A stretch of 64,000 nt of DNA. It comes from an uncultured Bacteroidales bacterium. Lineage in GTDB: Bacteria > Bacteroidota > Bacteroidia > Bacteroidales > P3. Position numbers and translations under genes: made by a program. The notes under the pieces are model-generated. The model did not search any database and had not been told where the DNA came from. It saw nothing but the letters and a program-made list of their open reading frames with translations. The first letter of the stretch is position 1; every line of letters begins with the position of its first letter. Location of the stretch: assembly GCA_946183915.1 (NCBI GenBank), contig CAMHDJ010000007.1, forward strand, positions 3,782 to 67,781, written 5' to 3'. Shown here piece by piece: positions 1 through 57,686 of the stretch.

Positions 1-1
1 C

Positions 2-826
2 ATTTCTTATCTGGAAAGCATCGGTTATATGAAATACACGCTCGACAAGCATATATCCTTATTCAAGACCATTGTGGGTGTGGCAGAACGGCAAGGTCTG
101 CACAACAATCACCTTGCCGCCAGTTATCTCAAAAGTCCTCAAATCAGAGAAGAGGACAAGGCAAAGGAGATTTACCTTACCAAAGATGAGTTGTCAGCCT
201 TGTATGAAATGCCACTCGAAGGGTTTGAAGAACAAGTTAGAGATGTGTTTCTCATTGGATGCTTCACGGCAATGAGGTTCTCTGATTACAGTCGGATAAA
301 AAAAGAGAACATCGGATTTACAAATAGTGGGACAAAGGTCATACGTATCAAACAGGAGAAGACTGCCGGTACCGTAGTCATTCCAATTTTGGACGAAAGA
401 TTGGAGACTCTGTTGAAGAAGTACGATTACAACGTGCCCGAAGTGCTCGACCAGAGTCTGAACCGTACCATCAAGGAAATCTGCAAAAGATTATCGGAAA
501 CGGTTTCAAGCCTCGGAAAGGAAGAGAGAACAGTGCTCAACTTGAAGGAACGTCGTTCAGAGATGGAGGCACGAAAGAAAGGTATAGAGCTTTTTAAGTA
601 TGACGAGCAAGGATTCCCCATTCGCCCAAGATGGGAGCTTGTGGCAAGCCATACGGCAAGACGGTCTTGTATTACGAATATGTATCTCTCAAAGAAGTTC
701 AGTGTTCAACAGATGATGAGTGTGAGCGGACATAAGACCGAGACGATGTTCTACAAGTACGTTAAACTGAGTTTGGATGAATATGCCGACAGTGTGGCAA
801 GTGCTGCTGTGGATGGGTTGTTTTGA
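2..826 (+). CDS. Tyrosine-type site-specific recombinase/integrase, 5' end cut by the window edge
   Basis: The frame is open from base 2, with the first in-frame ATG at 29. The C-terminal catalytic region carries SHTARRSCITNMY and SGHKTETMFYKYV motifs, typical of Bacteroidota integrases. A hairpin terminator follows. Confidence 0.8.
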   Translation: MSYLESIGYMKYTLDKHISLFKTIVGVAERQGLHNNHLAASYLKSPQIREEDKAKEIYLTKDELSALYEMPLEGFEEQVRDVFLIGCFTAMRFSDYSRIKKENIGFTNSGTKVIRIKQEKTAGTVVIPILDERLETLLKKYDYNVPEVLDQSLNRTIKEICKRLSETVSSLGKEERTVLNLKERRSEMEARKKGIELFKYDEQGFPIRPRWELVASHTARRSCITNMYLSKKFSVQQMMSVSGHKTETMFYKYVKLSLDEYADSVASAAVDGLF

Positions 827-833
827 ACAAATT

Positions 834-861
834 AAGGTGTGCAATGCACACCTTTTTTTGT
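834..861 (+). terminator. Rho-independent terminator after the integrase
   Basis: Inverted repeat AAGGTGTGCA / TGCACACCTT followed by TTTTTTTG. Confidence 0.6.
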
Positions 862-906
862 TTGCAGTAGATGGATAATCAGACAATTAAAACGCATTGA
901 ATATCC

Positions 907-977
907 TTGGCCATATCTTGGCCATATTTTGGCTATTTTTTGGGGGGGCCATATCTTGGCCATATCTTGGCCATATT
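907..977. repeat. Tandem array of six ~11-bp units TTGGCCATAT(C/T)
   Basis: Direct reading gives ttggccatatc ttggccatatt ttggctatttt ttggggggg-ccatatc ttggccatatc ttggccatatt. One unit is expanded by a G run. Confidence 0.9.
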
Positions 978-1095
978 TCGGTAGTACAGGCAAGCATTAT
1001 TATATTATTATATATAAATTACACTCTAAATTACGGGAATACAAATTGTTAGATACGGTGAGTAATGCTTTGGGCGCTACTGTTCCGGGCACCAA

Positions 1096-1129
1096 AGAGA
1101 GAAGCAAAAAATGCTTCTCTCTCTTTTTA
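1096..1129. terminator. Hairpin terminator, bidirectional in appearance
   Basis: AGAGAGAAGC, an A-rich loop, then GCTTCTCTCT, flanked by an A-run on the left and CTTTTTAT on the right. Confidence 0.5.
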
Positions 1130-1234
1130 TGTGTCCTCCACAGTCCTTGCCTGCCTTGCCGTCGCCTCCCGCCGGTCGGCCACAGCCCGGATCGAACACC
1201 CTTGAGTATATGTTTTCAATAAGCCGAGGTATAT

Positions 1235-1279
1235 GTTTTCTATATGCTGATGTATAAGTTTTCTATATGCTGATGTATA
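1235..1279. repeat. 23-bp tandem duplication (gttttctatatgctgatgtata x2)
   Basis: Two identical 22-nt copies are separated by one base. The related word tatatgttttc also occurs at 1207 and 1230. Confidence 0.85.
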
Positions 1280-1483
1280 TGGTAACTATAAGGTAGCGCT
1301 ACCCTGACGCAAAGGTGAGGATACCCCCGGCCGAATACCAGTGCTGGCAGATGGATAGTCAACCAATAGTGCATAGCAGGGCAAGCCCAACAACCCCATT
1401 AAACAGTTACACTCAACCTCAAAACACAACATAAGAGCAACCTTGACAAGTCGCCCTTATGTTCATTTATCCATTTGTTTAAG

Positions 1484-3478
1484 TTATCTCATGACAATAA
1501 CCTTTTGTGCTGGCAGGACGCCAATCTTGACTATATACACACCCGACGGCAAGGAATGGTTCTGCACCATGCGCCCAGTGATGTCGTACACCCGCACCTC
1601 TTCATTCGTGATACCCTCGACGCGGATACGCCCATCGAACACGCCTATATGAATGTCGTTTTCTTCTGCATCACCGATGCCCTGTGTGCTACCTGAGACA
1701 AAATAGGCTATAATGGTGGTGTCGCTGGTGACGGCCAGCGTGTAAGGGTTATCGGTGCTGCCCGTGCTCCAGTGGTCGAAACGATAGCCGTCGGCTGGCA
1801 CTGCATTTAGCACAGCGTTATGGTCGGTGCAGGAAGGTGCGGTTAGAACCTGCACGGTACCCATGCTTGTATCGTCCGAAACGGCAGAGAAACCAACCAT
1901 CGTTTCTACATAGTTGGAGAATTGTGGCATTTGGTTTACGTAATATGCTATCCGACCACAAGGTATATACACAGGAATATCTGTTGGAATTCCCTCAAAA
2001 ACATCAGTGCCGAGTTGTGGCGGCATTTGACATGTGATTTTCATTGATGTCAATCCGCTGCAACCAGAGAAAGCACTATTGCCAATACTGGTAACGGAGT
2101 TTCCAATGGTCACAGTTGTTAATCCACTGCATAAGCCGAAGGCCCCCGTCCCGATTTGGGTGACGGAGTTTGGGAATGACACCGATGTCAGGCCTGTACA
2201 TTCATAAAAGGCATAATTGTCGATGTTGGTAACAGAATTTCCAATTGACACCGATGTCAAGCCTGTACAGCCAGAGAAGGCGTAGTTGCCGATGCTTGTG
2301 ACAGAGTTTGGTATTGTTACCGATGTCAAACCTGTACAGTCAGCAAAGGCATCATACCAGATGTTGGTAACAGAATTTCCAATTGACACCGATGTCAAGC
2401 CGGTACAGCCAGAAAAGGCACGATCCATGATGTCGGTAACAGAGTTTCCAATTGTCACCGATGTCAAACCACTACAACCATAAAAGGCCCAAGACCCGAT
2501 GCTTGTGACGGAGTCTGGGATGGTGACGGAGGTCAGGCCACTGCAACCACAGAAGGCGTAGTTACCGATGCTGGTCACCGAGTTGGGGATTGCAAGATTT
2601 GTAAGGGGACTGCCATTGATGTTCAATGAATGGCTATAGATGGTTGGATTGGAGTTTGAATTGTCGAACAATATATTACACCATTGTTCGATAGTTCCAG
2701 TGTAGTTTACCGTGGTCAGCCCGCTGCAACCAGAGAAAGCACTATTGCCAATACTGGTAACGGAGTTTCCAATAGTGACGGAGGTCAGCCCGCTGCAACC
2801 AGAGAAAGCATTATTGCCAATACTGGTAACGGAGTTTCCAATAGTGACGGAGGTCAGGCCACTGCAACCACAGAAGGCGTAGTTACCGATGCTGGTCACC
2901 GAGTTGGGGATTGCAAGATTTGTAAGGGGACTGCCATTGATGTTCAATGAATGGCTATAGATGGTTGGATTGGAGTTTGAATTGTCGAACAATATATTAC
3001 ACCATTGTTCGATAGTTCCAGTGTAGTTTACCGTGGTCAGCCCGCTGCAACCAGAGAAAGCACTATTGCCAATACTGGTAACGTAGTTTCCAATAGTGAC
3101 GGAGGTCAGCCCGCTGCAACCAGAGAAAGCACTATTGCCAATACTGGTAACGTAGTTTCCAATAGTGACGGAGGTCAGCCCACTGCAATTATGGAAGGCA
3201 AATTTTTCGATCCTAGCCACACAATAAACGTCTCCTTCATTATCTTCTACACTATTGGGAATAACAAGATCCCCTGTAGGCTTTGTAAAAACACTCCAAT
3301 CATCAACATGATAAGTATTGGTGCCCGGAGCGACAACTACAACTAATCCTGGGTAGTCGTCCATATATCTATAGTACAATGTTTGCCCAGAAGGTGCAAC
3401 AACTGAAAAATCATATGAGGCAAATGCCGCTTGACTGAATACTAATGCGGCAAACAAAAGTAATACTTGCTTTTTCAT
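1484..3478 (-). CDS. BspA-like leucine-rich-repeat surface protein with a T9SS type-A C-terminal sorting domain
   Basis: Signal peptide MKKQVLLLFAALVFSQAAFA. More than 15 copies of a ~23-aa repeat (IGNSAFSGCSGLTSVTIGNSVTS). The C-terminal tail VRVYDITGRMV...GVYIVKIG...VIVMR resembles a Por/T9SS CTD. Confidence 0.85.
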   Translation of the reverse strand: MKKQVLLLFAALVFSQAAFASYDFSVVAPSGQTLYYRYMDDYPGLVVVVAPGTNTYHVDDWSVFTKPTGDLVIPNSVEDNEGDVYCVARIEKFAFHNCSGLTSVTIGNYVTSIGNSAFSGCSGLTSVTIGNYVTSIGNSAFSGCSGLTTVNYTGTIEQWCNILFDNSNSNPTIYSHSLNINGSPLTNLAIPNSVTSIGNYAFCGCSGLTSVTIGNSVTSIGNNAFSGCSGLTSVTIGNSVTSIGNSAFSGCSGLTTVNYTGTIEQWCNILFDNSNSNPTIYSHSLNINGSPLTNLAIPNSVTSIGNYAFCGCSGLTSVTIPDSVTSIGSWAFYGCSGLTSVTIGNSVTDIMDRAFSGCTGLTSVSIGNSVTNIWYDAFADCTGLTSVTIPNSVTSIGNYAFSGCTGLTSVSIGNSVTNIDNYAFYECTGLTSVSFPNSVTQIGTGAFGLCSGLTTVTIGNSVTSIGNSAFSGCSGLTSMKITCQMPPQLGTDVFEGIPTDIPVYIPCGRIAYYVNQMPQFSNYVETMVGFSAVSDDTSMGTVQVLTAPSCTDHNAVLNAVPADGYRFDHWSTGSTDNPYTLAVTSDTTIIAYFVSGSTQGIGDAEENDIHIGVFDGRIRVEGITNEEVRVYDITGRMVQNHSLPSGVYIVKIGVLPAQKVIVMR
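2529..3170. repeat. Near-perfect 321-bp (107-aa) tandem duplication inside the LRR gene
   Basis: The block starting ggaggtcaggccactgcaaccacagaaggcg at 2529 recurs at 2850. It is identical over more than 230 bp by eye. Confidence 0.85.
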
Positions 3479-3495
3479 GTCGATAAGGTGTTGTG

Positions 3496-3831
3496 CTATT
3501 TTTTAATTGGATTGTTGAAATCAGAGTATGGATGGTCTTCTCTGTAGTTGTTTCGTTCCAGCTCTCTATTTCTTTCTTCGTCATTCAGAATTTCACGTTG
3601 CTTTTGCCTTTTGATTTCTTCCAAGTTGTGGCTGATTTCTATTAGCTCGGAAAGTTCTGCTTGGGAAATGTGAATGGTTTTGTTCGTGTGGAGAGTTATG
3701 AACACATCGTTGTTACCGTTCCTCTCTAAGACATTCCTTTTCATCTTTTCCAGATACTCCTTTTTCTTTTTGGGGTCTTGTTCTGTCACATACAGAGCCA
3801 AAAGTTCATCGAATTCTTCTGCCGTTGCCAT
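3496..3831 (-). CDS. Hypothetical protein (111 aa, highly charged)
   Basis: ORF only, with no recognisable family. It is co-oriented and ends 17 bp upstream of the LRR gene. Confidence 0.45.
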   Translation of the reverse strand: MATAEEFDELLALYVTEQDPKKKKEYLEKMKRNVLERNGNNDVFITLHTNKTIHISQAELSELIEISHNLEEIKRQKQREILNDEERNRELERNNYREDHPYSDFNNPIKK

Positions 3832-4127
3832 ATCTTTACTTTTTTGTTCTCGGCTCGGAGAGGTTTAACTAATACGAAGAAAGTGGAGCCATCCATTTCC
3901 CTAATCTCAGACGTAGGGCTTGGACTCCCTTTTGTTTGGTACAAAGAAGATAAGGTCTGCTGATGTAACTCCACTTGGTGTATTTCGTTGGAATACGAAT
4001 ACAACACAAGTGAGAAATCATTTGCCTTATTCCGTCTTTGTACCTTCGTGAAGTGTCCAAGTTCACGTCTGCGGAATAGAGAAAATGCGCTTTCTCTCAG
4101 TAAACCTTTCCTGGCGGTTTACGGGTG

Positions 4128-4355: not shown

Positions 4356-5018
4356 TCACTTGTCGTCGGGTTGGAGGAAGGCGTAGCGGACGATGTTGGA
4401 GCCCATGCGGAGGGCCTTCTGGCGGGTGGCCTGACTGTCGTTGTGCACGTCGGGATCCTCCCATCCGTCGCCCAGGTCGCACTCCCAGGTGAAGAAGCAG
4501 ACCAGACGGCCCTCCCAGATAAGACCGTAGCCCTTCGGCGGCAGGTTGTCATGCTCGTGGATCTTCGGCAGGCCGTTGGGGAAGTCGTAGCGCTGATGGT
4601 AGATCGGGTGGCTGAAGGGAAGCTCGACGAATTCCAGCTCCGGAAAGACTTTCTTCATCTGCGGCACCACAAACTCGCGCAAGCCGTAGTTGTCGTCGAT
4701 GTGCAGGAAGCCGCCACCGATCAGGTAATCCCTGAGGTTCTGCGCCTCGCGGTCGCTGAACTGCACGTTTCCGTGGCCCGTCATGTGGACAAAGGGGTAG
4801 TTGAACAGCTCAGCACTGCCCACATCGACCGTGGCAGGCTGCGGGTTGAGGCCCATCTGCTGATCCTGATTGCAGAAGGCTATCAGGTTCTTGAGCGACG
4901 TAGGGTTGGCGTACCAGTCGCCCCCACCGCCATACTTGAGCAGGGCGATCTGGGTTTGGGCACACAGCGGCCCGGCCAGGCCGCCGAGGAGAATCAGTAT
5001 GTTAAGTATCTTATTCAT
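4356..5018 (-). CDS. DUF4159-like secreted protein
   Basis: The start MNKILNILILLGGLAGPLCAQ is a signal peptide. The LLKYGGGGDWYANPTSLKNL and HMTGHGNVQFS motifs are recalled from the DUF4159 family. Its ATG overlaps the rsmE stop (ATGA). The longer 368-aa ORF extension is GC-rich noise. Confidence 0.7.
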   Translation of the reverse strand: MNKILNILILLGGLAGPLCAQTQIALLKYGGGGDWYANPTSLKNLIAFCNQDQQMGLNPQPATVDVGSAELFNYPFVHMTGHGNVQFSDREAQNLRDYLIGGGFLHIDDNYGLREFVVPQMKKVFPELEFVELPFSHPIYHQRYDFPNGLPKIHEHDNLPPKGYGLIWEGRLVCFFTWECDLGDGWEDPDVHNDSQATRQKALRMGSNIVRYAFLQPDDK

Positions 5019-5734
5019 CGGTTGTTGACATAGTTGTATGCCGCCACGGCATAGAGTGCCGCCGTCTCGGTGCGCAGACGGGCCGTGCCGAAGCTGACCG
5101 CCCGGAAGCCGCAGCCCATGGCCTGCTCGATCTCCTGGCGCGAGAAGTCGCCCTCCGGCCCGATGAGCACCACCGTCTCGCGCCCCTGTTCCAGCACCTC
5201 GCCCAGGGCCACGCGCGGCTGATCGTCCTCGCAATGGGCTATGAAGCGCTGGGCGGAGGGCTGATCGGGCAGCGCCGCGAGCCAGTCGCTGAGCTTCACG
5301 GCGGGCCGGATGGCGGGCAACCAGCAGCGGAGACTCTGCTTCATGGCGCTGACGGCCAGCTTCTCCAGCCGGTCGGTCTTCAGGAACGACCGCTCGGAGT
5401 GGTCGCACTGCAGCAGGGTGATCTCCCCCACCCCCATCTCGACGGCCTTCTCCACCAGCCACTCCATGCGCGAGGGGTTCTTGGTGGGCGCCACGGCCAG
5501 GTGGAGAGTGGGTAGTGGAGAGTGGGTAGTGGGTAGCGAACCGACGCTCTCCACCACACAGGCGCGGTCGTCGGCCGTAACGATGCGGCAGTCATACAGA
5601 TGGCCGCAGCCGTCGGTGACGCTGAGCCCGTCGCCCTCGTGCAGGCGCAACACGCGCACCGCGTGGCGGCTCTCTTCGGCGTCGAGGGTGCAGATGCCGG
5701 GCGCCATTTCGGGACAATAGAACAGATTATTCAT
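5015..5734 (-). CDS. rsmE: 16S rRNA (uracil1498-N3)-methyltransferase
   Basis: The 239-aa product starts MNNLFYCPE and carries RHAVRVLRL, a PSRMEWLVEKAVEMGV segment and a LIGPEGDFS motif typical of RsmE. Confidence 0.85.
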   Translation of the reverse strand: MNNLFYCPEMAPGICTLDAEESRHAVRVLRLHEGDGLSVTDGCGHLYDCRIVTADDRACVVESVGSLPTTHSPLPTLHLAVAPTKNPSRMEWLVEKAVEMGVGEITLLQCDHSERSFLKTDRLEKLAVSAMKQSLRCWLPAIRPAVKLSDWLAALPDQPSAQRFIAHCEDDQPRVALGEVLEQGRETVVLIGPEGDFSRQEIEQAMGCGFRAVSFGTARLRTETAALYAVAAYNYVNNR

Positions 5735-7206: not shown

Positions 7207-8417
7207 AGCTGATTCATCTCCTTTTCCGCCCCGGCCGGCGACAGCGTCGGCGAGGCCGTGATCATGCCCGACGCCACCACCAGGTGGGCGTCGCGGTCGT
7301 AGAGGGTGGCATACTGGCCGGCGGCGATGCCGTGGATGGGCTCCTCGCTCTCGATGCACACCTGCCCGTCGGCCGTGCGGCGAAGCACACCGCGGTGGAA
7401 CTCAGGCGTGTGGCGTATCTTGAAGGTGACCTCGACGCGCTCGAAGTCGCCCCAGAGGTCGGCGCTCAGGTAGTGGAAGCCCGCCAGCGGGATCAGGCGC
7501 CCGTAGGCCGTCGCCGGGTCGTAGCCCTGGCTGACGTAGAGCACGTTGGCCTCGATGTCCTTCTGCACCACAAACCAGGGGCCGCCGCTGAGGTAGAGCC
7601 CCTTGCGCTGCCCGATGGTGTGGAACCAGTAGCCGCGGTGGGTGCCCAGCACGCGGCCCGTCTCCAGCTCCACGATCTTGCCCTCGCGCTCGCCCAGGTA
7701 GCGGCGCAGGAAGTCGTTGTAGTTGATCTTGCCCAGGAAGCAGATGCCCTGCGAGTCCTTGCGGTCGGCGCTTGGCAGCTTGGCCTGGTGGGCGATGGCG
7801 CGCACCTCCTCCTTCATCAGGTGCCCGATGGGGAACATCAGGCGGCGAATCTGGTCGTAGTCGAGCTGCGACAGGAAGTCGGTCTGGTCCTTCACCGGAT
7901 CCAGAGCCGTGGCCAGAAACTGCCTCACCCCCGGCCCCTCTCCTGGGAGGAGAGGGGAGCAGTTACCCCCGCTCTCCGCACTCCGGTCTCCACTTTCCAC
8001 TCTCCACTCTCCGCTTTCCACGTTCCACTTTCCACGTTCCACTCTCGCATAGTGGCCCGTGGCGATGCGGTCGTAGTCCTTGCCGCGGCGGTCGACGAAG
8101 GCGCCGAACTTGATCAGCTTGTTGCACATCACGTCCGGGTTGGGCGTCAGGCCGCGGCGCACGGTGTCGATCGTGTAGCTCACCACCCGCTCCCAGTACT
8201 CCTGGTGCAGGTTCACCTCCTCGAAGCGGCAGCCGTAGTGCCGCGCCAGCCACTGCGTGATCTCTATGTCCTCCTCGGCCGGGCAGTCGATGTAGCCCTC
8301 CTCGTCCTCCATCCCTATACGTATATAATAGATATCGGGCGTGATGCCCTGCTCCTTCAGCAGATGCACCACCACCGAGCTGTCCACGCCACCCGACACC
8401 AAAGCTGCAACTTTCAT
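7203..8417 (-). CDS. mnmA: tRNA 2-thiouridine(34) synthase
   Basis: Starts [16 protein letters not shown] (PP-loop SGGxDS). Also has [16 protein letters not shown] and [12 protein letters not shown] motifs. It contains an extra repetitive segment (see findings). Confidence 0.9.
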
Positions 8418-8449: not shown

Positions 8450-8572
8450 ACGCACCGCCCCCCCGATTTATTGCCCCGCCGCGCGGAAATCTTGCCTGCG
8501 GCCGCCCCACGGCCACCCCACGAGCACCCCCTGGCCACCCCCTGCCCCCACCCCTAACCCCCTGTCGCCCAC
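8450..8572. repeat. C-rich degenerate ~11-bp periodic tract
   Basis: Reads ccacggccacc ccacgagcacc ccctggccacc ccctgccccca cccctaacccc. It lies in the divergent region between mnmA and the 8712 gene. Confidence 0.7.
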
Positions 8573-10457: not shown

Positions 10458-12068
10458 TTAGTCGGCTTGATCGCGGAAATAGGGGTTTTGCACCATGCGG
10501 CCGTCGGGGCGGATGGTGGCGTTGGACGATTCGCGCACCGACGAGTTGCGACCCTCAAAGAGCATCTCGTCGCTGATTTCGCGGGTGGTCATGCTTTGCA
10601 CGATGTCGGCACCGTTGGCGTTGTTGCGCAGCAAGTCGTGGATGCGGCGGATGCGCTCGGCGGCGGTGGTGACGTCGTTGTCGTTGCGGAACACGTTGAC
10701 GGGGTTGGCCTTGGGCTGCGGGGCGGGCTCGGGCTGGGAGGCCACCTCCTGGCGGGGCTCGCTGACGAGGTGGATCTCGTCGACCATGACGTCAACCTCG
10801 GTCTTGAACTCTTCCGCCTGGGGTTCGCTGGCGTGGCGCGGCTTCTCGAAGACGGGGTCGTCGTCGAGGGTGAAGACGTGCTTCTCGGCCGGGGCGGACT
10901 GTTCGACGACGGGGGCCACGGGGGCCACGACGTCGACCGGAGCGGGCTCCGGACGGTGGATGATCTCCATGCCGTCGGGGTCTTCGACCTTGGCGACGGG
11001 CTGCTCGACGGCGGCCTTGGGCTGCTCCTCGGGCAGGACGAAGGTCTTGGGCTCCTCGGGAAGGATCTTGCCCTTCTCGAAACCGGTGGCGATGAGGATC
11101 ACCTTCAGCTCGTCGCCGAGGCTCTCGTCGGGGCCGGCGCCCCAGATGATGTCGGCGGTGCCGTCGGTCTTGTCGAGCACATAGTCGGTGATTTCGGCCT
11201 GCTCGTCCATGGTCATCTCGTGCTCGGTGGAGTAGGTGAAGTAGAGCAACACGTTCTTGGCGCCGCTGATGTCGCTGTCGTCGAGGAGGACACTGGTGGT
11301 GGCAGCCTCGATGGCGTCGTGGGCGCGGTTCTCGCCGCGGCCGCTGCCGGTGCCCATGAGGGCGGTGCCGCTGTGCTCCATGACGGTGTTGACGTCCTGG
11401 AAGTCGCGGTTGACATAGGCGTTTTCGGTGATGATCTCGGCGATGCCTTTGGCGGCGGTGAGCAGCACGTCGTCGGCCATGCCGAAGGCTTCGCTGATGC
11501 GCATGTTGCCGAAGGTGCGGAGCTTGTCGTTGTTGATGACGATGATGGAGTCGACATGCTTGCGGAGCTCCTCGATGCCGGCCTCGGCCTGCTCGCGGCG
11601 GCGCTTGCCCTCAAAGCTGAAGGGGCGCGTGACGATGGCGACGACAAGGATCTTCTTGTTCTCGTCGTTGTCGAGGTCGATGCTCTTGGCGATCTCGGCG
11701 ATGACGGGGGCAGCGCCGGTGCCAGTGCCGCCGCCCATGCCGGCGGTGATGAAGAGCATCTGGGTGTTGTGGGCCAGGGCTTCGCGGATGTCGTCGGCTT
11801 TGTCCTGTGCGGCCTTGCGGGCGCGCTCGGGTTTGTTGCCGGCACCCAGGCCGAGGTCGCCCAGCGGGATCTTGTTGGGCACGGGCGAGGCGTTGAGGGC
11901 CTTCATGTCGGTGTTGCAGACGATGAAGTCGACACCCTCGATGCCGCGGTCGTACATGTGGTTGACGGCGTTGCCGCCACCGCCTCCGACACCGATCACT
12001 TTGATGTAGGACGACTGCCCTTTGGGCGAATCAAAGGTAAAAAAGGTGGAATTTGTGTTCTCTTCCAT
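10458..12068 (-). CDS. ftsZ: Cell division GTPase FtsZ
   Basis: GVGGGGGNAV and the GGTGTGAAP tubulin signature, followed by a long Pro/Glu-rich linker. Confidence 0.95.
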   Translation of the reverse strand: MEENTNSTFFTFDSPKGQSSYIKVIGVGGGGGNAVNHMYDRGIEGVDFIVCNTDMKALNASPVPNKIPLGDLGLGAGNKPERARKAAQDKADDIREALAHNTQMLFITAGMGGGTGTGAAPVIAEIAKSIDLDNDENKKILVVAIVTRPFSFEGKRRREQAEAGIEELRKHVDSIIVINNDKLRTFGNMRISEAFGMADDVLLTAAKGIAEIITENAYVNRDFQDVNTVMEHSGTALMGTGSGRGENRAHDAIEAATTSVLLDDSDISGAKNVLLYFTYSTEHEMTMDEQAEITDYVLDKTDGTADIIWGAGPDESLGDELKVILIATGFEKGKILPEEPKTFVLPEEQPKAAVEQPVAKVEDPDGMEIIHRPEPAPVDVVAPVAPVVEQSAPAEKHVFTLDDDPVFEKPRHASEPQAEEFKTEVDVMVDEIHLVSEPRQEVASQPEPAPQPKANPVNVFRNDNDVTTAAERIRRIHDLLRNNANGADIVQSMTTREISDEMLFEGRNSSVRESSNATIRPDGRMVQNPYFRDQAD

Positions 12069-16994: not shown

Positions 16995-17052
16995 TCATCT
17001 TTTTTGTGCATCATCTCTGCATCCCCTCTGCATCATCTCTGCATCATGTCTG
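16995..17052. repeat. GCATC-phased 11-bp tandem repeats (same family as 25933..26075, opposite orientation)
   Basis: GCATC occurs at 17008, 17019, 17030 and 17041. The reverse complement contains gatgcagagatgatgcagaggggatgcag, identical to 26022-26050. Confidence 0.85.
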
Positions 17053-18252
17053 CTCTTCGGCAGCCAAAGGGCTGGGTTGAAGGGGGTCTGATGCCTGTTT
17101 GGAAACGGAGGGGTCACTGTTTTCAACTGCATAGACGTCGGCCGCCACCGACTGGATGATTCCAAGAGCCACACCCATAAACAGGTAGGCCGTACCGCCA
17201 TAGCTGATAAACGGGAGCGTCTGTCCCGTCACAGGCAGCACACCTACAGCCACACTCATGTTGACCAGCGCCTGCAGGTAGATCACCGTGCCGAGGCCGG
17301 CCACGGTGAGGGCTCCGAAACGGCCTTTGCAGCGCCAGGCCAGACGAATACAGCGGAAATAGAGTATGCTGTAGAGCAGGAAGACCACGATGCCGCCCAC
17401 CATACCCATCTCCTCGATGATGATGGCATAGATGAAGTCGTTGTGGGCCTGCGTCATGAGGCGGGCGTGGACCGTGTTGCCGATGCCCGCGCCGAAAACG
17501 CCTCCGCGGGCGATGGCCATACGGGCCATGTTCTCCTGCGTCAGCGCGTCGGGGTCGGGGTGCATCCAGTTGTCGATACGCTCGGCCCAGATGCCACTGC
17601 GGTGCAGCACCTCGCCGCCCTCGGCCTCGGCGCCGCTGTTGCCGCCGCGCGACATCAGAAGGAGCGCCACCATTCCCACAAAGACCACTCCCAGCAAGAG
17701 GCGCCACCAGTACTTGCGGTTGACGCCGCCGATGAGCATCATCAGATAGCACACCAGGAAGATAAGGGCCGCCATGGAGAAGTTCTCCGGCAGGATGAGG
17801 GCCACCACAATACCGACGTAGAGGAGCAGTTGGAGGAAGGTGCCCAGCTCGGCCACCTGGTCTTTCTTGATGGCCAACATGCGGGCCACGAAGACCACAA
17901 GGACAATCTTTGCGATCTCCGACGGCTGGAACTGACCGATGACGGGGATGCGGAACCAGCGGCCTCCCTGCAGCGCCAGCATCACCGCCAGCAGCACCAG
18001 CGTCAGCCAGTAGCCCAGCATGGCAAAGCGCGAGAAGAAGCGATAGTTGACCCGCGACATCAAGATGACTACCACATAGGTGGCCGCCACAATCACGAGG
18101 TGCTTCAGGAAGAGACCCGTGGGCATGGTGCCGGGTAGCGAATAGGCGTAGAGGCCGATCGAGCTGTAGACCTCGACCAGCGAGATGATGCTGAGCAGCA
18201 GGAATACCACCCAGATCGTCTTGTCTCCACGGAATGCTTTTGATATCTTCAT
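17044..18252 (-). CDS. ftsW: Lipid II flippase / SEDS protein FtsW
   Basis: Starts MKISKAFRGDKTIWVVFLLLS. It is a polytopic SEDS-type protein with a PFISYGGTA motif. The upstream 48 codons of the ORF are rejected as an extension. Confidence 0.9.
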   Translation of the reverse strand: MKISKAFRGDKTIWVVFLLLSIISLVEVYSSIGLYAYSLPGTMPTGLFLKHLVIVAATYVVVILMSRVNYRFFSRFAMLGYWLTLVLLAVMLALQGGRWFRIPVIGQFQPSEIAKIVLVVFVARMLAIKKDQVAELGTFLQLLLYVGIVVALILPENFSMAALIFLVCYLMMLIGGVNRKYWWRLLLGVVFVGMVALLLMSRGGNSGAEAEGGEVLHRSGIWAERIDNWMHPDPDALTQENMARMAIARGGVFGAGIGNTVHARLMTQAHNDFIYAIIIEEMGMVGGIVVFLLYSILYFRCIRLAWRCKGRFGALTVAGLGTVIYLQALVNMSVAVGVLPVTGQTLPFISYGGTAYLFMGVALGIIQSVAADVYAVENSDPSVSKQASDPLQPSPLAAEEQT

Positions 18253-23769: not shown

Positions 23770-24191
23770 AGTTCATACGGCGGGCCGCTGGTGATGCCGA
23801 CACCGGTTCCCTTGAGGTCCTCGGCAATCTGCGAGATCTTGACGCTCTGCTGGTATTGCTTCTGCATCTGGATCCGGTGCTCGCGCAGGTAGTTGATGCG
23901 CTCCTCGGTGGCCGCCTTCTCGCGGCTGAGATTCTCCACGCGGTAGCGGTTGCCGACGATGAGCAGCAGGTAGAGGAGACACAGCAGCACCAGCGGTATC
24001 TGCTTGAGGACCACACGCGCGCTGAGGGCATCGCCACCCAGCACACGACCCAGGCCACGGGCGGCCTTGGCGCTGCGCCGGGGGGTGCGGGGCGCTGCCG
24101 CAGCGGCCGGCGACGGCGACGCCGCCTCCACCTGCGGACGCGGCTCCTCGAGGCCTTCTTCGACCACTTTATCCCTGAACTTGTTTCCCAT
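23766..24191 (-). CDS. ftsL: FtsL-like cell division protein
   Basis: A small bitopic protein with a single TM (IPLVLLCLLYLLLIV) followed by a coiled coil. It lies between rsmH and ftsI, and its stop overlaps the ftsI start (ATGA). Confidence 0.7.
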   Translation of the reverse strand: MGNKFRDKVVEEGLEEPRPQVEAASPSPAAAAAPRTPRRSAKAARGLGRVLGGDALSARVVLKQIPLVLLCLLYLLLIVGNRYRVENLSREKAATEERINYLREHRIQMQKQYQQSVKISQIAEDLKGTGVGITSGPPYEL

Positions 24192-24220
24192 CTTTATCTT
24201 TAAACTTTAATCCTTCATCT

Positions 24221-25168
24221 TTAATCCTTTAACCTTCTCATCCCCACCCTCAGGCGAGCGCTGCGGGCGCGGCTGTTGACAGCCACCTCCTCGTCGCTGG
24301 CCTGCACGGCCCCGCGACTCACCATCTGCATCGTCGACAGGGGGTTGCCGTAGAAGTCTTTTTCCACCCGCCCCTCGAAGTTGCCCGTCTTCATGAAGTT
24401 CTTTACCAGGCGGTCTTCGAGCGAGTGGTAGCTGATCACCACCAGGCGTCCCTCGGGGGTCAGCAGCTCGGCGGCCTGCTCGAGCATGGCTTTCAGGGCC
24501 TCCAGCTCGCCGTTCACCTCGATGCGGAGGGCCTGGAACAGCATGGCCAGGTACTTGTTCTCCATGCCTCGGGGCAGGTGGCGGCCGACGGCGTCGCGCA
24601 GCTGGCCCGTGGTGTCGATCGAGGCCAGGGCGCGGGCCTTCACGATAGCGCGGGCCATCTGGCGCGCATTGGGCAGCTCGCCGTAGAGGTGCAGCAGGCG
24701 TGCGAGCTCCTCTTCGTCGAGGCTGTTCACCAGGTCGCGGGCCGACACGGGCGACTGGCGGTCCATCCGCATGTCCAGCTCGCCGTCCAGGCGCGTGGAG
24801 AAGCCCCGCTCGGCGGTGTCGAACTGGTGGCTGCTCACCCCCAGGTCGGCCAGCACCCCGTCGACCTGCCGCACGCCGTGCAGCCGCAGAAACGACTTCA
24901 GGTACCTGAAATTCTCGCCGATGAACGTGAACTCGGCCTCGCTCTCGCAGCTCTCCGCTCTCCACTCGCCGCTCTCCACGCGGCGGGCGGCGTCGGGATC
25001 CTGGTCGAAGGCATAGAGGCGGCCGCCGCGTCCCAGCAGCTCCAGGATGGCACGCGAATGGCCGCCGCCGCCGAAGGTCACGTCGACATAGGTGCCTTCG
25101 GGGCGGATCTGCAATCCGTCAATCGCTTCGGTGAGCATCACCGGCCTGTGGTAGTCATTGTTCGTCAT
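24221..25168 (-). CDS. rsmH: 16S rRNA (cytosine1402-N4)-methyltransferase
   Basis: HRPVMLTEA, DVTFGGGGHS, DLGVSSHQFD and ISYHSLEDR motifs. Confidence 0.95.
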   Translation of the reverse strand: MTNNDYHRPVMLTEAIDGLQIRPEGTYVDVTFGGGGHSRAILELLGRGGRLYAFDQDPDAARRVESGEWRAESCESEAEFTFIGENFRYLKSFLRLHGVRQVDGVLADLGVSSHQFDTAERGFSTRLDGELDMRMDRQSPVSARDLVNSLDEEELARLLHLYGELPNARQMARAIVKARALASIDTTGQLRDAVGRHLPRGMENKYLAMLFQALRIEVNGELEALKAMLEQAAELLTPEGRLVVISYHSLEDRLVKNFMKTGNFEGRVEKDFYGNPLSTMQMVSRGAVQASDEEVAVNSRARSARLRVGMRRLKD

Positions 25169-25932: not shown

Positions 25933-26075
25933 GATGCCTGGATGATGCCTAGTTGATGCCTAGTTGATGCCTAGTTGATGCCTGGTTGATGCCTGGATGA
26001 TGCCTGCCAGGATGCAGAGATGATGCAGAGATGATGCAGAGGGGATGCAGGGAGGATGCAGGGAGGATGGATGGA
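25933..26075. repeat. Array of about 13 degenerate 11-bp units with phased GATG(C/G)
   Basis: GATG starts at 25933, 25944, 25955, 25966, 25977, 25988, 25999, 26011, 26022, 26033, 26044, 26055 and 26066. Unit types are gatgcctagtt, gatgcagagat and gatgcagggag. Confidence 0.9.
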
Positions 26076-32095: not shown

Positions 32096-32299
32096 CCCTG
32101 CCTGCTCCCTGATGGCTCCCTGATGACTCCCTGATGACTCTCTTAAAACCAGGGTAAAATCCTTGCCCTGTCAGCGTTTTGCGAGTTTTCCAGCATGGTT
32201 TGCACACTTTCAAAGTGCTAGATGCCTCGTTCAGAATGTTTTAAAGGTGCAAATTAGATCGTGCACGATCTAATTTTTTGACTTAAATTAACTTAAATT
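32096..32299 (+). repeat. Dispersed repeat family, copy A (core with 26-bp palindrome at 32251-32276)
   Basis: About 200 bp collinear with 38938-39140, and with 57176-57372 in reverse. It starts with phased ccctgatggct ccctgatgact ccctgatgact and contains aaattagatcgtgcacgatctaattt. Confidence 0.85.
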
Positions 32300-38937: not shown

Positions 38938-39297
38938 CCCTGCCTGCTACCTGATGGCTCCCTGATGACTCCCTGATGACTCTCTTAAAACCAGCGTGAA
39001 ATCCTTGCCCTGTCAGCGTTTTGCAAGTTTTCCAGCATGGTTGACACACTTCCGGAAGGCTAGACATCTCGTTCTGAATGTTTTAAAGGTGTAAATTAGA
39101 TCGTGCACGATCTAATTTTTTGACTTAAATTAACTTAAATCGGCTGTTTTGGGCTGCGTTTTCGGATCGCAGCATCGGCGCCCTGCGCCGACGGCACCGC
39201 GGAGGGTGCCGTTCTCCGCTTCGCTATCGGAAGCCTCCACTGGAGGCTCCCTTCACGCGCACGATCTAATTTTTTGACTTTAATTAACTTAAATTGG
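38938..39297 (+). repeat. Dispersed repeat family, copy B (core, 115-bp GC-rich module, duplicated half palindrome and AT-rich tail)
   Basis: The core 38938-39140 is collinear with copy A, with the palindrome at 39093-39118. 39141-39255 is a GC-rich module shared with copy C. 39256-39297 repeats cgcgcacgatctaattttttgactttaattaacttaaatt. Confidence 0.85.
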
Positions 39298-49223: not shown

Positions 49224-49522
49224 GCGGAGGATGTGGGGGTTGCGGCGGGAGGAAATCGGGGCGGTGAGGAGAAAATGGCAGGAAATCGGCGGGTCGGAGG
49301 CGGCGGGGAGGCGGCAGGGTGGCGGTAGAGAGGCGGGGCACTGGTGAGAGGGGAACGGCAGGAAGGCGGCGGGGAGGCGGCGGGGAGGCGGCCCCTTGGA
49401 GAGAGGGGAACGGCGGGGAGGCGGGGGGGCGGCGGGGAGGGATGGGGGCCGGATGGGGACCGGATGGGGGCGGGATGGGGACCGAACGGTGGCGGGTCGG
49501 TGGCGGGACGGTGGCGGGATGG
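49224..49522. repeat. G-rich degenerate ~11-bp periodic array (about 300 bp)
   Basis: Examples are ggcggggaggc ggcggggaggc and ggccggatggg gaccggatggg ggcgggatggg gaccgaacggt ggcgggtcggt ggcgggacggt ggcgggatgg. Confidence 0.85.
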
Positions 49523-57047: not shown

Positions 57048-57372
57048 TAGATCGTGCACGCGAAGGGAGCCTCCAGTGGAGGCTTCCGATAGCGAAGCGG
57101 AGAACGGCACCCTCCGCGGTGCCGTCGGCGCAACGCGCCGATGCTGCGATCCGAAAACGCAGCCCAAAACAGTCAATTTAAGTTAATTTAAGTCAAAAAA
57201 TTAGATCGTGCACGATCTAATTTGCACCTTTAAACCGTTCTAAACGAGATGTTTGGTCTTCCGGAAGTGTGTCAACCATGCTGGAAAACTCGCAAAACGC
57301 TGACAGGGCAAGGATTTCACCCTGGTTTTAAGAGAGTCATCAGGGAGTCATCAGGGAGTCATCAGGGAGCCA
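57048..57372 (-). repeat. Dispersed repeat family, copy C (inverted relative to A and B; carries the 115-bp module)
   Basis: The palindrome is at 57198-57223. 57061-57175 is the reverse complement of the copy B module. The copy ends with gagtcatcagg gagtcatcagg gagtcatcagg gagcc. Confidence 0.85.
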
Positions 57373-57416
57373 CCTAGTAACCATGGGCATTTCGGAGGGG
57401 TCGACACGAGAGTATT

Positions 57417-57686
57417 TTAAACGGCGAATGACTCGAATTACTCGAAGCTACGCAAGTTTTTTTAACGGCGAATTACTCGAATTACTCGAAGCTACGCAAG
57501 TTTTTTTAACGGCGAATTACTCGAATTACTCGAAGCTACGCAGGTTATTTGGGCTAATTACTCGAAGCTACGCAGGTTACTCTGTTTCATTTTTTAACGG
57601 CGAATTACTCGAATTACTCGAAGCTACGCAGGTTATTTGGGCTAATTACTCGAAGCTACGCAGGTTACTCAGTTTCGAGTAATTAG
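57417..57686. repeat. Complex tandem repeat (44-bp units and an 87-bp higher-order unit)
   Basis: The unit ttaacggcgaattactcgaattactcgaagctacgca(a/g)g occurs four times. The word attactcgaagctacgca occurs six times. 57505-57591 is repeated at 57592-57678. Confidence 0.9.

Follow-up and report, generated by a model that had tools for sequence, protein, structure and literature searches.

Rickettsia palindromic elements (RPEs) are, in the part of PMC10969869 that recounts Ogata et al. (2000), elements of about 150 bp that belong to defined sequence families, encode a conserved peptide and lie in frame in housekeeping genes. Palindromic amphipathic repeat coding elements (PARCELs) are dyad-symmetric coding repeats (PMC2996958). 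Heptanucleotide repeats are also known, such as the short tandemly repeated repetitive (STRR) sequences of cyanobacteria and the repeat TAACTGA, which occurs in Beggiatoaceae, cyanobacteria and a few Bacteroidetes (PMC4679880, PMC4692102). GGGNATC heptanucleotide repeats are reported for Xanthomonas and Nostoc in the portions of these two papers that deal with them (PMC4679880, PMC4692102; Mrazek 2007 cited there). The known heptanucleotide repeats are mainly intergenic and are under-represented within coding sequence (PMC4692102). Our literature searches returned nothing specific, either for Bacteroidales or for mnmA, on heptamer repeats or on repeats that are read in frame. Here we describe a repeat insert of this kind within mnmA, the gene for tRNA 2-thiouridine(34) synthase, in a stretch of 64,000 nucleotides from an uncultured Bacteroidales bacterium (GenBank assembly GCA_946183915.1, contig CAMHDJ010000007.1, positions 3,782 to 67,781), which is called the window below. 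The codon position that it occupies is hypervariable, a hot spot of variation throughout a clade. The insert is probably near-neutral, translated repeat DNA that the enzyme tolerates, that is filtered only for reading frame and position, and that is spread by recombination.

The host open reading frame (ORF) has the features of MnmA. All three MnmA Pfam domains were found (PF03054, E = 5e-58; PF20259; PF20258), and the ORF has the MnmA set of a HUP/PP-loop catalytic domain, a PRC-barrel and a C-terminal beta-barrel. It also matched solved MnmA structures in a PDB search (E ~5e-64), and the PP-loop SGGVDSS is at residues 8-14. The catalytic triad of E. coli MnmA is D99, C102 and C199 (PMC11784392); the equivalent Asp, Cys and Cys are kept in the motifs NPDVMCNK (D95, C98) and DSQGICF (C226), which were aligned to conserved MnmA blocks. 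The insert is located between GHYAR and the next conserved block, is in frame and contains no stop codon. Between the aligned blocks there are 40 residues in the window MnmA versus about 8 in the solved structures. In an AlphaFold2 model of the window MnmA (mean predicted local distance difference test score, pLDDT, of 73), strands 124-132 and 164-170 lie on either side of the insert as the two strands of a beta-hairpin of the catalytic domain, and pLDDT is below 50 for residues 143-160. The model predicts that the insert is placed at the disordered tip of this beta-hairpin. A Pfam search with the insert peptide found no domain. The preliminary description's reading of a repeat inserted in frame into a housekeeping gene is supported, and the site is a tolerant loop.

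An insert-free allele is found in the strain that carries locus L081. Its mnmA is 97.8% identical to that of the window in nucleotides overall; outside the site the identity is 96-100% in each 100 nt, and the MnmA proteins are 99.4% identical. Because of this high identity in mnmA, L081 is assigned to the same species as the window. At the insert site, L081 has 22 nt (R-TELVGD-RQ) versus 121 nt in the window, and the net gain of the window is 99 nt or 33 codons. The product is therefore longer, as had been noticed before, although the earlier figure of about 40 amino acids was slightly high. The earlier account of the tract and palindrome also holds as a description, but the positions given were 1-2 nt too high (the tract is at 7970-8046 and not 7971-8047; the palindrome is at 7935-7957 and not 7937-7959). 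In the alignment of L081 with the window, the insert is not flanked by a direct repeat and has neither a target-site duplication nor a clean boundary.

The insert is made up of a heptamer array and a G-rich palindrome module (Table 1). Tandem Repeats Finder (TRF) reported period 7 at 7969-8019 and 7989-8043 with 7-8 copies and 79-83% matches, and the array holds at least six unit variants. It is of the 'left arm' type of relatives such as L004 and L002. The window contains 13 GTGGARAGTGGARAG-like (GTGGARA-type) 15-mers versus 0.42 expected, and these are confined to mnmA, rsmE and rsmH. For the palindrome, 0 matches are expected in shuffled sequence, and the module to which it belongs recurs in the right half of the insert of L007. 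The weak stem between array and palindrome sits where relatives have a conserved core, which is degenerate in the window when compared with L007 and L004. The window insert is a chimera of an L004-type (GTGGAGA) left arm and the right half of an L007-type G-rich 'GEGxGVR' palindrome. Because its arms are chimeric, the window insert has no long arm-to-arm hairpin and has a small local palindrome only. We rejected a hairpin of the whole insert, as the RNA fold of the insert region is not more stable than that of shuffled sequence (z = -0.65). Folded as single-stranded DNA, the plus strand has z = -2.7, a value dominated by the local palindrome. The window insert has no terminal inverted repeats and is not palindromic as a whole element; only the local 10-bp palindrome is present. 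A search of Rfam with the insert returned only a sub-threshold chance match (Pab91, 20 bits versus a gathering score of 71). The G-rich module resembles the widespread 'GEGxGVR' repeats. In being a compact, G+C-rich, imperfect palindrome of suitable size, the module made of CCCCTCTCC/GGAGAGGGG and GGGGTGAGG resembles repetitive extragenic palindromic (REP) sequences and bacterial interspersed mosaic elements (BIMEs). Unlike these extragenic elements, it is intragenic, translated and single-copy in the sampled DNA.

Five independent contigs from different samples (the window, L082, L083, L084 and L085) carry the same insert with identical tract length, which led us to reject an assembly artefact. 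In addition, the protein recorded as P0125 matches the window MnmA exactly, insert peptide included. In the strain alignment, the length of the heptamer array is invariant and its sequence is hypervariable. Four strains differ from one another at 2-11% of the 123 nt of the insert (3-13 differences) versus 1-2% in the rest of the gene; the insert's rate of evolution is about 5-10 times that of the remaining mnmA. These changes are concentrated in the heptamers and resemble a shuffling of unit variants. The ratio of nonsynonymous to synonymous substitution rates (dN/dS; Nei-Gojobori, NG86) was ~0.5-1.0 in the insert versus 0.1-0.27 in the rest of the gene for the five strain pairs in which both values exceed 0; the sixth pair, window and L083, has an insert dS of 0. 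By these ratios the insert peptide is apparently evolving almost neutrally, under relaxed constraint, and we infer that it is neutral for the function of the enzyme. An import of the insert together with its right flank, where the strains have an ATAL/ATAK difference, was rejected because the insert-bearing L083 and L084 have the insert-free flank. A metagenome scan with the species-specific left flank returned only two contigs, one from a further insert-bearing strain and one from a base-state relative.

To place the window allele among its relatives we used two samples. The protein sample consisted of the 120 closest MnmA sequences (71-100% identity, all from uncultured Bacteroidales), in 119 of which the site was readable. 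The genomic sample consisted of 80 species-representative loci (L001-L080) from metagenome-assembled genomes (MAGs) of rumen and hindgut, including Candidatus Colimorpha. The base state at the site is nine variable codons (xTxxxDGxx) between GHYA and FLATA. Inserts of 4-59 extra codons are present at the site in 71 of the 119 proteins, in 71 distinct versions. At the genomic level 33 of the 80 loci carry an insert, none of these inserts shifts the frame or contains a stop, and mnmA reads through the site uninterrupted in all 80; counted over 32 inserts, the chance of all being in frame is (1/3)^32, or ~5e-16. The junction codons vary by lineage (R|VESG, RTVQ|VESG, Q|IENL, RTEC|LNVL and QI|SYLP). 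In a neighbor-joining tree of the MnmA backbone, insert-bearing and insert-free genes are interleaved throughout. A near-universal, conserved tRNA-modification enzyme can thus carry 4-59 extra and essentially random residues at one loop, and repeat DNA rewrites this loop repeatedly, within and between species. Such variation provides a natural map of permissive sites for use in tagging or engineering proteins, and the insert site can serve as a sensitive marker of strains in an uncultured lineage from gut and rumen.

Many of the inserts in relatives are long hairpins with arms made of tandem heptamers and their reverse complement. The L004 insert is (GTGGAGA)n ... (TCTCCAC)n with a dG of -76 kcal/mol, and similar hairpins with tandem-heptamer arms are found in L002, L018, L022, L023 and L037. 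The arms consist of 8-mers in L021 and L080 and of 9-mers in L013, L028 and L059. The L007 insert is a nested G-rich palindrome, CTCACCCC..CCCCTCTCC / GGAGAGGGG..GGGGTGAG, with a dG of -86 kcal/mol. Unlike the window insert, those of L004, L007 and L022 are palindromic as a whole. Inserts with unrelated arms have a common centre, approximately GCTGAYGCGKCAGC, which is always read as ADA or DAAA. The window insert is not the only chimera, since the L012 insert has an ATTGAAA left arm and a TCTCCAC right arm. Inserts of the L004 and L007 types are found in backbones that are 96-97% identical, and backbones that are 96-99% identical can bear unrelated inserts or none. Conversely, identical inserts of 53 and 27 amino acids are found in backbones that are only ~86.5% identical, where blocks of 100% identity surround these inserts and the sequence outside is diverged. 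Such mosaic mnmA alleles show what is evidently exchange by homologous recombination between strains and species. Two further repeats were noted in the MnmA of relatives. The protein P0063 has, in the loop before EVKFKIRH of its C-terminal domain, a second insert, GEGVLHDSQDFAE, that is related to its main insert's right arm, and L022 has a heptamer tract near the 3' end of mnmA (1156-1191).

With RPEs, within the features given in the account cited above, the mnmA insert shares short palindromic DNA, an in-frame location in unrelated housekeeping genes, an extra peptide that is compatible with the fold, and a presence that varies among related genomes. The comparison with these elements that was made in the preliminary description is apt as an analogy. 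Unlike the RPEs of that account, the mnmA inserts have arms of lineage-specific tandem 7-mers (some of 8- or 9-mers) and a peptide that is not conserved (dN/dS ~0.5-1); the same mnmA codon position has been struck repeatedly; and many copies in the clade are single arrays and not palindromes. The hosts also differ, in that the Bacteroidales belong to another phylum and the host here is not intracellular. PARCELs and the mnmA inserts are alike in being coding tandem repeats with dyad symmetry in the DNA and in showing horizontal exchange, but PARCELs form a defined 25-residue amphipathic domain in membrane and surface proteins and are not heptamer arrays in enzyme loops. The mnmA case thus combines features of heptanucleotide repeats and of in-frame palindromes, and differs from both in its tandem-repeat arms, common core, reuse of one site and coding occupancy. 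Hairpins that are armed with tandem repeats around a common core raise the question of how palindromes originate and spread.

We also took a census of tandem tracts (at least 4 copies, at least 85% match) in the 80 loci and the window, a total of 1.44 Mb. These loci were chosen through mnmA, so mnmA and its neighbor rsmE are over-represented and the intragenic share of the tracts is inflated. There were 129 tracts of period 7, 25 of period 8 and 22 of period 11, whereas periods 4, 5, 6 and 9 gave 3, 3, 5 and 5 tracts and periods 10 and 12 gave 1-5 each. When placed relative to genes, 73 of 132 heptamer tracts have conserved protein sequence on both sides (a figure that carries the mnmA/rsmE bias), 19 lie just 5' of a conserved ORF and 40 are intergenic. 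The in-frame hosts include RsmE (two linkers), the signal-peptide core of DUF4159 proteins, an AroE-like protein (three loops), the C-terminal tail of a CorC-like protein, a loop of a LolE-like protein and a flippase. The core 9-mer GAYGCRKCA adjoins 12 of the 132 heptamer tracts versus 1.3% of control positions. Outside mnmA, this core is found at the two RsmE linkers of L013 and at the 3' end of the CorC-like gene in L064, L067 and L073. Approximately 10 of 129 heptamer tracts pair up as arms; most are single arms without the core. The G-rich palindrome module was found only at the mnmA site, with no dispersed copies in the 1.44 Mb. We rejected the idea that each genome has one heptamer sequence through concerted evolution across sites, because several families occur in the single genomes L028 and L030. 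In the DUF4159 proteins the hydrophobic core of the signal peptide comes from species-specific heptamer arrays, for example LFFIFYFSFF and ILSSFLFPLSTLS. A scan of viral contigs for (GTGGAGA)4 yielded only 4 matches in 2.9 million contigs, a number that gives no sign of a phage vector. On the putative viral contig L087 (IMG/VR), positions 2700-2870 hold (GGAGAGT)7, a palindromic loop GGCAGATCTGCC and then TCTCCAC-type units, and L090 has a very long GTGGAGA/GTGGATG array.

The arrays of this clade resemble STRR sequences and long simple sequence repeats (LSSRs) with heptamer units in several ways. In both, 7-nt units are joined head to tail and period 7 is in strong excess relative to neighboring periods, both are often just upstream of gene starts or at gene ends, and both occur as several families per genome. 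Unlike the STRR and LSSR heptamers, more than half of the sampled tracts in the clade (in this mnmA/rsmE-biased sample) lie in frame inside conserved genes, some arrays are inverted pairs around a common core, and the units are RTKGARA-like and not TAACTGA or GGGNATC. These data extend heptanucleotide repeats beyond a mainly intergenic location, as the tracts described here often lie in frame within genes, with signal peptides and inter-domain linkers among their sites.

Two other genes of the window, rsmE and rsmH, contain the same heptamer family, as the preliminary description had noted and the 15-mer matches in both genes bear out. In RsmE, two linkers (before LAVAPTKNPSRMEW and before KFIAHCE) are overwritten by species-specific heptamer peptides with little change in length, and in L013 both linkers are full hairpins with a GATGCRTCAG core (11404-11515 and 11703-11814). 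The PUA-SPOUT linker, which holds the rsmE tract of the window, bears peptides of heptamer origin in many related species. The rsmE tract is stable among strains. At the position of the RsmH tract of the window, peptides like one 11-residue heptamer peptide are found in most of 120 RsmH homologues, and the C-terminal tails of RsmH in relatives are often heptamer-derived, for example VESEKWKVEKEK. The three host genes in the window had suggested a preference for RNA-modification enzymes. This is not supported, as tracts are also found in DUF4159, AroE-like, CorC-like, LolE-like and flippase genes and in many 5' leaders. Since heptamer tracts occur in so many kinds of genes, the three hosts of the window provide no evidence for a link to RNA modification.

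The reading that we favor, tolerated repeat DNA that passes a filter for frame and position, would work as follows. Short-period arrays (mainly of 7 nt, less often of 8 or 11) would arise at a very high rate in this clade, with slipped-strand synthesis as their likely source. Some arrays would pair with an inverted copy around the core GCTGAYGCGKCAGC and so give long palindromes, and the sequence patterns point to fold-back or template-switch copying as the likely origin of the paired arms. Selection would purge copies that shift the frame, add stops or strike structured parts of a protein, so that those left would gather in the same few permissive places, such as loops, linkers, signal peptides and tails. 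Among these uncultured Bacteroidales of rumen and hindgut, the tip of the MnmA hairpin, a surface hairpin, would take almost any stop-free sequence. Alleles with an insert, without one or with different arms would be swapped as mnmA segments undergo homologous recombination, and the window allele, with its L004-type left arm and G-rich right half, would be one product of such recombination. Several points weigh against this. Translation of the insert and activity of the enzyme are deduced from the sequence only, and slippage and fold-back are likewise read from sequence patterns. The recurrent site, the common frame of the core (DAAA/ADA) and the occurrence of the core in different genes could reflect targeted insertion or a selected function. 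The choice of loci through mnmA raises the share of intragenic tracts by way of mnmA and the neighboring rsmE, and ranking by tblastn could under-sample frameshifted alleles.

[quoted passage not shown] The enrichment of GAYGCRKCA next to heptamer tracts is suggestive of this, although many of the cores in mnmA may be homologous by descent, in which case the enrichment overcounts. The core is also found at independent sites (the mnmA loop, the L013 RsmE linkers and the CorC-like 3' end), it is kept where the arms are wholly different (L004 versus L007, L012, L022 and L037), near-identical strains differ in presence or absence of the insert, and there is a heptamer-armed hairpin on the viral contig L087 as well. 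A mobile element fits poorly with the lack of a target-site duplication or clean boundary, the replacement of 22 nt and the lineage-specific junction codons. It also fits poorly with the prevalence of single arms without a core (only ~10 of 129 tracts being paired) and with a G-rich module that is single-copy in 1.44 Mb. We regard such an element as unlikely. The same findings, a missing target-site duplication, a G-rich module found only at mnmA and a chimeric insert, also count against the earlier idea that heptamers and hairpin form one compact element. In a broader form, self-propagating palindromes compatible with coding, with 7-9-mer arms around GCTGAYGCGKCAGC, would be installed or overwritten at loops and linkers by dedicated machinery or by templated conversion, and to this too we give only limited credence. 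If it were true, sites of the MnmA beta-hairpin type would be naturally occurring 'cassette' positions from which essential enzymes continuously gain new peptides.

It is also conceivable, but improbable, that the insert is functional and selected. It could tune the expression of mnmA through a structure in RNA or DNA, or it could form a variable protein arm under diversifying selection that, for example, escapes a phage or toxin factor directed at MnmA. The loop is extremely variable even within a species, in an enzyme that is otherwise highly conserved, many lineages have retained strong hairpins, and the 11-residue heptamer peptide of RsmH is kept in most of the 120 homologues. Against this, similar tracts occur both in non-coding DNA and in proteins of unrelated kinds, disorder is predicted for the tip, and the insert dN/dS of ~0.5-1 with a raised dS fits relaxed constraint and hypermutability better than positive selection. 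A selected function is less likely because the window allele lacks a long arm-to-arm hairpin and yet persists in five independent contigs, coexists with insert-free alleles in the same species and appears to be near-neutral. The remaining possibility, that mnmA is a contingency locus switched on and off by gain or loss of single 7-bp units, is very improbable. Like the phase-variable contingency loci of Haemophilus and Neisseria, the mnmA tract is an intragenic tandem repeat with a unit that is not a multiple of three, so slips of one unit would shift the frame. Unlike those loci, it has no length polymorphism among strains, its units are imperfect, and it lies in neither a surface gene nor a restriction-modification gene but in a cytoplasmic housekeeping gene. 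In MAG II849, the only MAG with a frameshifted copy, mnmA is split by frameshifts inside an L004-type insert and annotated as two hypothetical proteins (MBQ3788109.1/P0121 and MBQ3788108.1/P0156), but the copy is either a genuine pseudogene or the result of misassembly at the palindrome. The only copy-number variant seen, a difference of 3 units (21 nt) within one 90% cluster, preserves the frame. Tract length is identical in the five insert-bearing contigs from different samples, at least 30 cluster representatives with the TEQVDSGQWTVDSG insert share one length, as do 15 members of one 11-residue-peptide cluster, all 33 insert-bearing species genomes are in frame, and units that match at only 79-83% suppress slippage. 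The preliminary description, which had proposed a slipped-strand frameshift switch, had itself named an invariant tract as evidence to the contrary; because the tract is invariant in length, the proposal fails on its own terms. The switch idea is not supported and is largely refuted. The split gene of MAG II849 also illustrates a need for caution in annotation, as inserts split or lengthen the gene calls of MAGs.

Table 1. Repeat features and host genes. Positions refer to the window unless a locus is named.
Feature	Position	Strand	Basis
mnmA coding sequence (CDS), insert host, tRNA 2-thiouridine(34) synthase, 404 aa	7203..8417	-	translation, Pfam, PDB matches
Insert proper, 121 nt in place of 22 nt (CCGCACCGAGCTGGTGGGCGAC) of insert-free conspecific strain	7926..8046	-	DNA alignment with L081
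Array of 11 imperfect heptamers (units counted by eye); coding strand GTGGARA-like, plus strand CNCTNTC-like	7970..8046	-	TRF, strain alignment
Weak 6-bp stem GAGCGG/CUGCUC, spacer between array and palindrome	7957..7974	-	RNA fold
Perfect 10-bp/10-bp palindrome with 3-nt loop, CCCCTCTCCT ggg AGGAGAGGGG	7935..7957	.	sequence, fold
G-rich tail GGGGTGAGG (plus strand CCTCACCCC) closing the palindrome module; encodes GVR	7923..7931	-	matches L007 element end
rsmE CDS	5015-5734	-	Pfam
rsmE heptamer tract, opposite orientation, encodes LPTTHSPLPTLH in PUA-SPOUT linker	5501..5536	+	TRF, 15-mers at 5501-5529
rsmE linker tracts of L019	11309-11350, 11565-11597		
rsmH CDS	24221-25168	-	Pfam
rsmH heptamer tract encoding RVESGEWRAES	24940..24979	-	TRF, 15-mers at 24951-24979
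Second heptamer family, GTTAAAG-like on coding strand, across rsmH stop codon/3' end	24189..24237	-	TRF
DUF4159 heptamer arrays	L001 13384-13422, L002 3745-3779, L005 3870-3906, L022 3660-3695, L026 13328-13365		

The window contains other tandem repeats, many with units of 11 nt. In the leader directly upstream of mnmA there is a C-rich 11-nt tandem array, CGGCCACCCCA, with about 4 copies (8499-8541). An intergenic element in which 11-nt units CTCCCTGATGA are followed by CTCTCTTAAAACCAG is found in three copies, one of them inverted (32096-32140, 38950-38982 and 57334-57369). Other 11-mer arrays are at 901-976, 17007-17053 and 25933-26069, the last of which consists of two different adjacent arrays. 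A long G-rich block at 49296-49522 has nested repeats of 11, 22 and 55 nt (GGAGGCGGCGG..., GGATGGGGGCC...), and a 44/88-nt tandem repeat at 57411-57676, with 3-5 copies and a sub-repeat CGAATTACT, is apparently non-coding. Positions 1-4000 of the window have a G+C content of 0.44-0.45 versus ~0.6 elsewhere, with tandem repeats of 69 and 321 nt at 2159-3188, and in related strains the neighborhood of this region holds LRR_5-type repeat proteins. This part of the window may be a foreign or surface-protein island.

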